From Myxococcota bacterium (lineage in GTDB: Bacteria; Myxococcota_A; UBA9042; PHBI01; JAWLBL01), in contig JAWLBL010000012.1 of NCBI GenBank assembly GCA_041687695.1, forward strand, positions 156,324 to 176,547: DNA of 20,224 nt. Direction: 5' to 3'. Below are positions 12,101 through 15,100 of the stretch, piece after piece; the first letter of the stretch is position 1, and each line of letters begins with the position of its first letter. A program made the position numbers.

Positions 12101-15100
12101 CGAAGCCGCCGTACGGCGACGCCGGCCCTCCGTCCGGGCTGACGCCCCGCGGCCATCCCCATCGCCGACCAGCACCTCACCACGGGCCACTTCCGCCAGC
12201 CGGCCCGCCACGGCGACCTCCTCTTCATCGAGGGCGCCGCCGGATCCCGCTCGACCGCGGCCTCGGCCTGCTCGCCCACGACGAGGCCACCCTGGCGCCC
12301 CGGCCAGCGCGCCCCTGGACCGCTCGCCGAGCGATCCCGCGCTCGACGGCCCCGCGTCGCATCGACATGGGCTCCGCGGGCGTCCGCGTCTCCCGGTTCG
12401 ACGCCGCGACCTGGAGCGTCGGACTCAGTCCGGCAGGCGGGTCCGGACGCCCGCGCCCCACCAGACGTGGTTGGTCTGCTTGATCACCTTGCTCGACCCA
12501 TCCGTCGTGTTGACGACCAGGACGTCGCCCTTGGCGTCGAAGGCGAAGGCGCTGGTGGTCCAGCCGGCGACGCCGTACAGCTCGGAGTAACCGGTGATGG
12601 CGCCGAAGTCCGCGACGACCTGACCGTTCTTGGGGTCGAGCAGCACGAGGTGATCGTGGCCGGCGCCGGCCTTGTTGGCGGTCGCCCAGGTGCCCAGCCC
12701 CTCGATGGAGTAGGCATCGCCCGAGGACGAATACGACCCGCCGAAGCTGCCCAGCTTGGACACGGACACGGGCGCCGAGCCGGCCGGGAAGGCGGGCGTC
12801 AGGCGGTGCCAGCCGCCGTCGTTCGAGATCCCGACCAGGACGTCCTCGTTGGGGTCGAGCACGCCCTTGGGGACCAGGGTCAGGCCGTTGAAGGACGTGG
12901 GGAGCCCGCCGAGATCCGTGCAGACCGCCGTCTGCGGGTGGCAGGTGTACAGGCGGTCGAAGCTGACCCCGTACAAGACGCCGTGGCGGTCGATGGCGAT
13001 GTCGGTCATCTGGTGGCCGCCGCCGTCGTTCGGCCAGGCGAAGGCGCCCATCTCGGCGATCAGGTAGGTCTTGACGTGCAGCGTGAAGAGCTTGGTCGAC
13101 GTGTGCGCGTAGACCACGTCCGGCGCCGCGACGCCCGGCCTGAGCGGATCGAAGGGCCACAGGTCGTTGGCGTTCGGCACGGTGTCGCCGTCGACGTCGG
13201 GGTCGCAGGCGTCGCCGACGCCGTCCTGGTCGTTGTCGAGCTGCCCCGCGTTGGGAATGGAGGGGCAGTTGTCGACGTCGTCCGGCACGCCGTCGTCGTC
13301 GAAGTCGGCCGGCGGTGGGGGCGTGCCGGGGTCCAACTCGACGTCGGAAGCCGCGTCGGGCGCCGGCGCACCGACATCGCCACCGGTGTCCTGGAGCACG
13401 GCGTCCTCGACCGCGTCGGCGAACACCACGTCGTGGACGGCGTCGGTGGCTTTGGCGTCCTCGCCGGCCGCCGGGCCGGGGGCGTCGGAACAGCCGGCCG
13501 CGCCCAGGGCGACCGCGAGCAGGGCGTGTCTAGGCTTCATCCGGCCCACCATGCGAAGCCGCCCCGGAGGTGTCAACGCCAACGATGGTCAGCGGACCCG
13601 GTGGACGACCCGTCCCTCCGCCTCGCCCATTCGCCAGCGGGTCTCCACCTCGAGCGCCCGCCGGTCGTCGGCGGGGGCCTGCAGCGCGACCTCGACGTCC
13701 AGCGTGGCGTCGGCCGCGACCGGCCGCGGCTCGAGCGGCAGAAAGGTCTTCTTCCAGTGCGTCTCGGGGTCGGCCGGCCCGGTCGGCAGCTCGACGCCTT
13801 CGCACAGGTCCAGGGTGAACCAGCCCATCAGGCCTACCAGCTCGCCCGCCGGCAGCCCCTCGAAGCGCGCCGTCCCGCCGACCACCGCGCCCATCCCCGG
13901 GTAGGGCACGTCCGCGATCACCGCCCCCGGGTGCATCAGCGACTCGGGCAACGCGTCCTGTGTCATCGCGCGCCCCAACGCCGGCTCACGCAGCGCCGAC
14001 AGGTCCACGCCACGATAGGTGCCGAAGGCGTCCATCGCGTCGTCGAAGGCCCCGCGCGCCCCGACCGGGGCGACGTGCAACCTCACCCCGCGGGGGATCA
14101 CCTGTCCGTCGGGCTTCAGGTTGCGCTTCACGCAGGCCTCCAGATCCGGCGCGCTGCCCTCGGCCAGCGCTAGCGCCCCGAAGGTCTCGGTGACGATCAC
14201 GTCCACCGGCTCGGGCAGCTGCACCGTCCCAAAGTCCCCCCGAATCAGCCGGATCTGCTCGTCGACGCCCGATCGCCGCGCGGTCTCGGCCGCCACGTCC
14301 ATCAGCTCGGAGCGATCGACCGCGTAGACGACCCTCGCCCCCGCCAGCGCCGCCAGGCACGCCAGCACGCCCGACCCGGTCCCGGCGTCCAGCACGGCCA
14401 TCCCCGGCTTCACCACCTGCGCGATCGCGTCGGCGTAGGCGTCCAGCCGCACCTTGTCGGCCAACATGCGCCGGTGCACGTCGATGGCCCCGAACCCCTC
14501 GAACATGGCCGGCGTCGCGTCGGCCTCGCCCTCGGCCACCAGGAACCCGACCTGCGCCAGCTTGCGAAACAGCGCCGCCCCCTGCGGCCCGAAGTTCTCG
14601 GCCACGTCGTCCAGCGTCCTCGGCTCGGAGCAAAAGGCGAGCAGCAGCGCCGACTGCGGCGGTACCCGCGCCGCGATGCCGGCCGAGGTCGACCGCAGCC
14701 TCAGCGCCCCTCCCGCTTCGAACGAGGCCGTCAGATCGGTCAGGCGCACCAGCGCCACGTCGTCTCGAGATGTGCTCATGTCGCGCACCCTACCACCGAA
14801 AGGCCACGTCGAAGCGCGGCAACAGCTGCCAGTCGTCCGGCCCCGGGAAGTCGCCCGCCGACAGCCACCACCCCGCCTCGACCCGCACCGACGACCCGGC
14901 CCGCCAGGCCAGCCCGGCCGAGTGGTTCCAGACGGGGCTGCCGTCCTCGTACTCGCCGCCCAACAATACGAAGAGCGTCACGTCGGCGAAGTAGTCGAAG
15001 GGGCCGGCGATGGGCCCCTCGGCGGCCAGCGTGGCGTCCAGCGTCGCCCCGTTCACCCAATGCGCAGTGCGCTCGTACAGGTACCAGAGATCCGCCGTCG

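Follow-up and report, generated by a model that had tools for sequence, protein, structure and literature searches.

Eukaryotic type I PRMTs (PRMT6, PRMT3, PRMT2, CARM1, and PRMT1) combine a Rossmann domain with a β-barrel and a dimerisation arm, and carry motif I, a pair of glutamates in a double-E loop, and a THW loop. A further type I feature is a methionine in the helix that precedes the Rossmann fold. Motifs I, post-I, II, and III are listed as PRMT motifs in a passage of PMC12925635, which also names YFxxY as a type I mark and gives SExMGxxLxxExM as the double-E loop consensus. The double-E glutamates and the THW loop bind the guanidino group (passages of PMC8226133 and PMC12153873), and small changes in these loops switched the product of TbPRMT7 (passage of PMC8226133).

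Bacterial relatives of PRMTs were predicted long ago in PMC3417536, a passage of which traces the eukaryotic enzymes back to peptide methylases that bacteria encode in secondary-metabolite operons. Like the family described here, these form a bacterial PRMT radiation, and they act on peptides; the contexts named in that passage are NRPS, dioxygenase, and amine-oxidase ones, and it mentions neither RRE fusions nor ribosomal precursors nor genes standing alone. Arginine methylation occurs in bacterial proteomes (10.1101/2023.06.29.546327, in excerpt). No characterised bacterial case of the PRMT fold was found in the open-access literature, and no bacterial chain with this fold among solved structures.

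An RRE/PqqD-type domain lies N-terminal to the catalytic domain in TigE, MibB, NisB, MccB, PbtF, and lasso B1. RREs bind leaders through the third strand and the last helix (passage of PMC7470986). SAM-dependent N-methylation of ribosomal peptides is represented by PznL/BamL, PoyE/AerE, and PbtM1. PznL acts on arginine, but on the α-amine; AerE and PbtM1 methylate asparagine amides, and AerE resembles GenN and PrmC, not PRMTs (passages of PMC11285071 and PMC9060474). The excerpted part of a 2024 review of RiPP methyltransferases names arginine only for α-amine methylation, and the string 'guanidin' is absent from this review; a 2026 review, where it treats lasso modifications in the part excerpted, lists citrulline and not methylarginine. 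The main text of the RRE-Finder paper contains neither 'methyltransferase' nor 'arginine'. The open-access literature yielded no RRE joined to an arginine methyltransferase, no RiPP dimethylarginine, and no RiPP arginine methylation; the sole match for methylarginine with RiPPs concerned MCR.

Here we describe P0001, a fusion of an RRE-type domain with a PRMT core encoded in a 20,224-nt window, the whole stretch of DNA analysed. Bacterial PRMT-like peptide methylases are already known; what is added is the RRE-type fusion, the solitary copies, and a nested RiPP-linked branch. On balance, we favour a reading in which P0001 works as a homodimer and uses SAM to methylate peptide-bound arginine at its guanidino group, the window copy being an orphan and the neighbouring precursor serving as substrate in the RiPP-linked branch. 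The fold, the conserved catalytic set, the RRE fold, the gene context, and the tree behind this reading were computed.

Overall structure of P0001

The 396-residue reading frame claimed in the preliminary description is borne out: it starts from an ATG with a purine-rich stretch 9 bases upstream, its GC frame is coding-like (GC3 0.94), and it is present in a single copy in a genome that is 99% complete. The gene and the elements of the model (pLDDT 95.3) are as follows.

13589..14779, minus strand: RRE-PRMT fusion gene (P0001), 396 aa from the ATG
14528..14758, minus strand: N-terminal domain, residues 8-84, a three-strand sheet and three helices of RRE/PqqD-type winged-helix fold
14492..14506, minus strand: place of the type I YFxxY, residues 92-96, both tyrosines replaced
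14084..14512, minus strand: SAM-binding Rossmann domain, residues 90-232, with H102, M105, D108, R111, motif I, and D155
14159..14188, minus strand: double-E loop, E198 to E207, invariant in 103/103 and aligned to the glutamate pair of 119 eukaryotic PRMTs
13592..14083, minus strand: PRMT β-barrel domain, residues 233-396 (Pfam PRMT_C, 29.9 bits, cut-off 27)
13964..14041, minus strand: dimerisation arm, residues 247-272, packing in the two-copy model
13754..13762, minus strand: THW loop, residues 340-342, H and W in 103/103 and T in 101/103

The Rossmann and β-barrel architecture of the PRMT superfamily was found by Pfam, in the model, and by structure comparison. As had been proposed for the core, PRMT6 ranks first both as the solved relative by sequence (E 7e-33, over residues 91-390) and in Foldseek (E 3.5e-30, 29-30% identity, TM 0.81 on the target and 0.67 on the query).

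P0001 is predicted to be a homodimer. Its two-copy model scores 0.80 against 0.00 for the best control, with pLDDT 86-87 and contacts agreeing at at least 85%, a score that may show only likeness to already solved PRMT dimers. In the benchmark, the mark was reached by 20 of 30 solved homodimers and one of 23 monomers. The arm packs against the Rossmann helices of the partner, as in PRMTs, and the N-terminal domains of the two copies touch through residues 12-26 and 41-52.

Catalytic core

The reference alignment comprises 103 close homologues, 17 of the best 120 listed having been dropped, mostly as fragments. It was compared with 119 eukaryotic proteins, mostly PRMT6-like and including no PRMT5, PRMT7, or PRMT9 sequences. 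P0001 has motif I at 129-137, post-I at 155, motif II at 192-195, and motif III at 221-229. The invariance noted before for both glutamates and the HW pair now extends to all 103 aligned homologues (E198, E207, H341, and W342), and M105 is likewise kept in 103/103. H102, M105, D108, R111, motif I, both glutamates, THW, R374, and a C-terminal arginine are common to the bacterial 103 and the eukaryotic 119. In some members of the wider family, the histidine of THW is replaced by serine or cysteine. The family is predicted to be enzymatically active.

The two sets differ around the active site. The first tyrosine of YFxxY is found in 0/103 bacterial proteins and the last in 17/103, against 117/119 eukaryotic proteins at either position. 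The first glutamate is followed by threonine (102/103) and phenylalanine (position 200, 99/103) in the family, but by Trp-Met in 119/119 eukaryotic proteins; the methionine after the second glutamate (position 209) is present in 5/103 against 119/119. The loop between the glutamates departs from the eukaryotic consensus at four near-invariant places, and the dimerisation arm has a median length of 36 in the family versus 40 in eukaryotes. The double-E loop of the family is, we presume, closer in look to that of PRMT7 and PRMT9.

P0001 was considered as a type I PRMT, the label given in the preliminary description. The histidine of THW and the helix methionine, a type I pair, are both there (H341 and M105, 103/103). 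The label nevertheless fails on the YFxxY tyrosines, the methionine that the double-E consensus has after each glutamate, and a descent outside the eukaryotic branch as drawn from a PRMT6-biased sample. Because of these motif differences and the separate tree branch, a type I classification is not warranted for the family, which its sequences indicate to be PRMT-like in working. For the product, monomethylarginine alone stands at nearly even chances, asymmetric dimethylarginine is a serious but somewhat doubtful candidate, and symmetric dimethylarginine or another product is unlikely.

DDAH-type enzymes degrade methylarginines. In Longimicrobium, four loci (L021-L024) carry PRMT-like genes without the N-terminal domain, as a tandem pair in L021, and in L022 and L024 an amidinotransferase/DDAH-family gene adjoins the PRMT-like gene, a hint at the product.

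N-terminal RRE-type domain

An extra N-terminal domain had been recognised before and left unexplained. The domain is indeed present, and a fold search with the model places residues 8-84 in the RRE/PqqD class, with RREs ranking above Rickettsia PKMT2 and the ribosomal oxygenases. PKMT1/2 and the oxygenases YcfD/NO66 are also protein modifiers with an RRE-like winged helix, but they differ in chemistry and catalytic fold and score structurally below true RREs. The fusion is distinguished from TigE, MibB, NisB, MccB, PbtF, and lasso B1 by its PRMT partner domain, and from eukaryotic type I PRMTs by the RRE-type domain itself. Pfam gave no match to the domain in 25 of 25 members scanned. A profile of the family domain matched PqqD at E 0.006, with a weak hhalign result, and an atlas match to MftB at 0.75 is a lead only. 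Because the domain has the RRE fold, the family is tied to the modification of peptide precursors; docking of a peptide through it is probable.

Family and phylogeny

Homologues of P0001 number 135 among 8000 scored candidates at E<=1e-5, in agreement with the coherent family of more than 100 reported earlier; the best 120 of the 135 have E<=1.5e-63 and 39-55% identity. The labels of close loci and weak MYXO-CTERM matches suggest a Myxococcota-related host; some of the record labels look unreliable (e.g. Enterobacterales at 73% GC). The family is not confined to myxobacteria-related bacteria, as had been suggested, and extends to loci labelled Cyclobacteriaceae (L013) and Desulforhopalus singaporensis (L017). 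The broader radiation comprises 4179 representatives at E<=1e-30, prokaryotic and eukaryotic together, and the atlas groups bacterial look-alikes into clusters that reach 1156 members and mostly go by the names L11 methyltransferase or hypothetical. In a sample of 401 genomes from the phylum, 66 carry a PRMT-like gene at E<=1e-60 and 24 of these the close family; the figures are 26 and 7 for 107 genomes of the class, and samples around L013 and L017 gave 6/301 and 7/351 genomes. From these counts and the atlas clusters and names, bacterial PRMT-like genes are common and mis-named.

A tree built on the catalytic core, with 163 rows, places the eukaryotic rows, which are PRMT6-biased and lack PRMT5/7/9, together with two unassigned rows on a branch of their own (SH-aLRT 100), separate from 142 rows that belong to the bacterial-type radiation. 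Descent from a eukaryote, as a true type I, ADMA-forming PRMT possibly directed at eukaryotic prey or hosts, is very improbable. Besides this branching in a PRMT6-biased sample, the family lies inside the bacterial radiation, YFxxY and the second-glutamate methionine are missing, and the N-terminus folds as a domain and not as a signal peptide.

The close family comprises 46 rows (support 99/93, mixture-model tree) and contains a nested 8-row branch (100/96), a grouping in which AT-rich rows may attract each other. Since RiPP-linked rows nest inside solitary ones, which formed one clade in 0/200 bootstrap trees, the tree suggests an older solitary state, with recruitment of one lineage into RiPP clusters.

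Solitary loci

The RRE-PRMT gene lies within a co-directional run of four genes, with gaps measuring 10 and 42 bases, and for this reason is probably co-transcribed with neighbours that are not conserved beside it:

14790..16822, minus strand: two upstream co-directional genes, a hypothetical protein and an endonuclease/exonuclease/phosphatase family member, not conserved beside homologues
12425..13546, minus strand: lipoprotein-like gene downstream, co-directional and with TSP3 repeats, likewise not conserved beside homologues

The gene's neighbours in the window have no homologue in any foreign locus compared, and no convincing precursor, other maturase, or exporter was found nearby. The window additionally contains the following. 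A run of membrane-protein genes (715-6091, minus strand, from translations) reads, we presume, like a multi-subunit Mrp-type cation/proton antiporter operon. An MNIO/DUF692 gene (6222-7892, minus strand) with a long C-terminal extension is nearest to ApyH but far below the cut-off; no precursor was seen for it and no linkage to the PRMT gene in other loci. Two tandem paralogous surface proteins (9773-11922, plus strand) have Pro-Glu repeats and MYXO-CTERM-like tails below the cut-off. A DUF222-HNH gene (16840-18441, minus strand; four tblastn matches in the genome) lies beside a repeat array. Tandem arrays at 1-231 and 18989-20224, with 54-base and ~126-base units, have a common 16-base core, which occurs genome-wide in 30 exact copies in 14 clusters and is possibly a REP-like element family.

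Among myxococcal relatives, 36 distinct loci form 22 groups at 65% identity. The description of the gene as solitary and outside clusters holds for these copies, though not throughout the family (L013, L017, L270, L271, and L281). Fourteen maturase, exporter, or RRE queries found no homologue beside the enzyme in any of the 36, and no convincing precursor was seen there, with search sensitivity limited at high GC. The neighbours are mostly housekeeping genes, with synteny kept within genera. No neighbour is common to more than three of the 22 groups, so that the reported absence of a shared neighbour mostly stands; the exception is a gene for a TrmA/RlmD-type RNA methyltransferase, which in L007, L009, L010, and L011 follows the RRE-PRMT gene directly downstream or overlaps it.

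The N-terminal domain of solitary copies could instead be a brace or a protein-binding winged helix of the kind seen in Rickettsia PKMT or the ribosomal oxygenases, the enzyme methylating an arginine of a folded housekeeping protein (e.g. a ribosomal one) and the RiPP branch being recruited later. We hold this to be a minority possibility. It accords with the housekeeping neighbours and their synteny, the lack of maturase-like neighbours (0/36), the coupling of four loci to an RNA methyltransferase gene, the nesting of RiPP rows, and the contact between N-terminal domains in the dimer model. Against this, the fold search ranks RREs above both PKMT2 and the oxygenases, and occurrence of the close family in 24/401 genomes of the phylum is patchy for a housekeeping function. 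The leader-binding third strand and last helix are also not among the named interface residues, a comparison in which unnamed residues are uncertain.

RiPP-linked loci

DNA context is available for five rows of the nested branch, each of them RiPP-type. At L013, the enzyme is surrounded by a C39-ABC exporter, HlyD, and six short ORFs with double-Gly leaders; the stretch examined contains no other maturase. L270, L271, and L281 each contain a precursor with a YxxP-type leader, an ScmC/HprK-like kinase, a radical SAM enzyme, the RRE-PRMT, and an S26/S24 peptidase. Two of them also have a large surface protein, in two the RRE-PRMT start overlaps the radical SAM stop, and L270 additionally carries a nucleotidyltransferase gene. 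L017 has a B12 radical SAM gene upstream and a convergent SPASM radical SAM gene; no precursor was found there. A precursor together with other maturases or an exporter is thus present at L013, L270, L271, and L281.

In these five loci, the N-domain profile, which can miss distant RREs, detected no second RRE. This would fit a protein that mainly donates its RRE to the radical SAM enzyme or peptidase, with an idle methyltransferase half. Such a role is most improbable, given the invariant catalytic residues of the close family and solitary copies with no partner enzyme to serve.

The cores encoded beside the enzymes are 6-33 residues long. Arginine occurs in 8/9 predicted cores of the RiPP-linked branch, at 9.0% versus 3.7% (p 0.003, or 0.02 once relatives are collapsed, with cut sites placed by eye). 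A separate clade (96) has enzymes in lasso-type clusters: L234 encodes a four-Arg core directly upstream of the enzyme, the cores of L235 and L262 have one and two arginines, and that of L263 has none. In the same clade, the enzyme gene of L231 follows a B12 radical SAM gene, and L232, L233, and L236 are solitary. At the end of the lasso-type cluster of L235 (6849-9174) lie tandem methyltransferase-like genes, the first with an RRE-like start and a degenerate core.

Arginine is likely the target. The PRMT fold might be used on another nucleophile, such as an Asn/Gln amide nitrogen, histidine, lysine, an α-amine, or a small guanidine metabolite; this we rate as unlikely. Cores without arginine, the altered inter-glutamate loop, and the description of bacterial PRMT-like domains as peptide methylases, both within NRPSs and in operons for secondary metabolites (passage of PMC3417536), speak for it, whereas the guanidino-binding glutamates and THW are invariant (103/103) and the cores are enriched in arginine.

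No target of P0001 was found in its genome, which has no C39 exporter and whose two PqqD genes have cassettes of their own. Its one L270-type cassette has the L270/L271 layout without the methyltransferase, and is present in only 6/23 other carriers:

G000:C11:16058-26037: PqqD, 2384-aa surface-type protein, precursor-like ORF, kinase-like gene, and SPASM radical SAM

The precursor-like ORF (23820-24005, 61 aa) has a WxxPxL leader and a Cys-rich, Arg-free core. Close cassettes with similar precursors occur in G052-G054 (L357-L359).

Discussion

For P0001 as an arginine methyltransferase, SAM would sit in the Rossmann domain and the N-terminal domain would dock a leader-like segment, while E198, E207, and H341 would orient the guanidino group for methyl transfer within a dimer. 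The precursor encoded next door would serve as substrate in the nested branch. P0001, an orphan copy, may act on a substrate encoded elsewhere, such as a peptide not linked to the gene or a flexible stretch of some cellular protein.

A wider reading is tentative: RRE-PRMTs would be widespread bacterial, leader-steered arginine side-chain methyltransferases misnamed PrmA. Taken with it, and equally tentative, methylarginine would occur in several mutually unrelated RiPP classes (double-Gly, radical SAM/kinase cassette, and lasso). The older solitary branch, P0001 included, would use the same docking on a cellular protein, so that bacteria would have a system of arginine methylation resembling that of eukaryotes.

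Together, the RRE fusion and the cores encoded nearby provide directly testable enzyme-substrate pairs, and the main interest lies in the sister loci. If the proposed activity is true, guanidino methylation would join RiPP chemistry with a leader-programmable arginine methyltransferase, and the family would offer a handle on the origin of eukaryotic PRMTs from peptide methylases.
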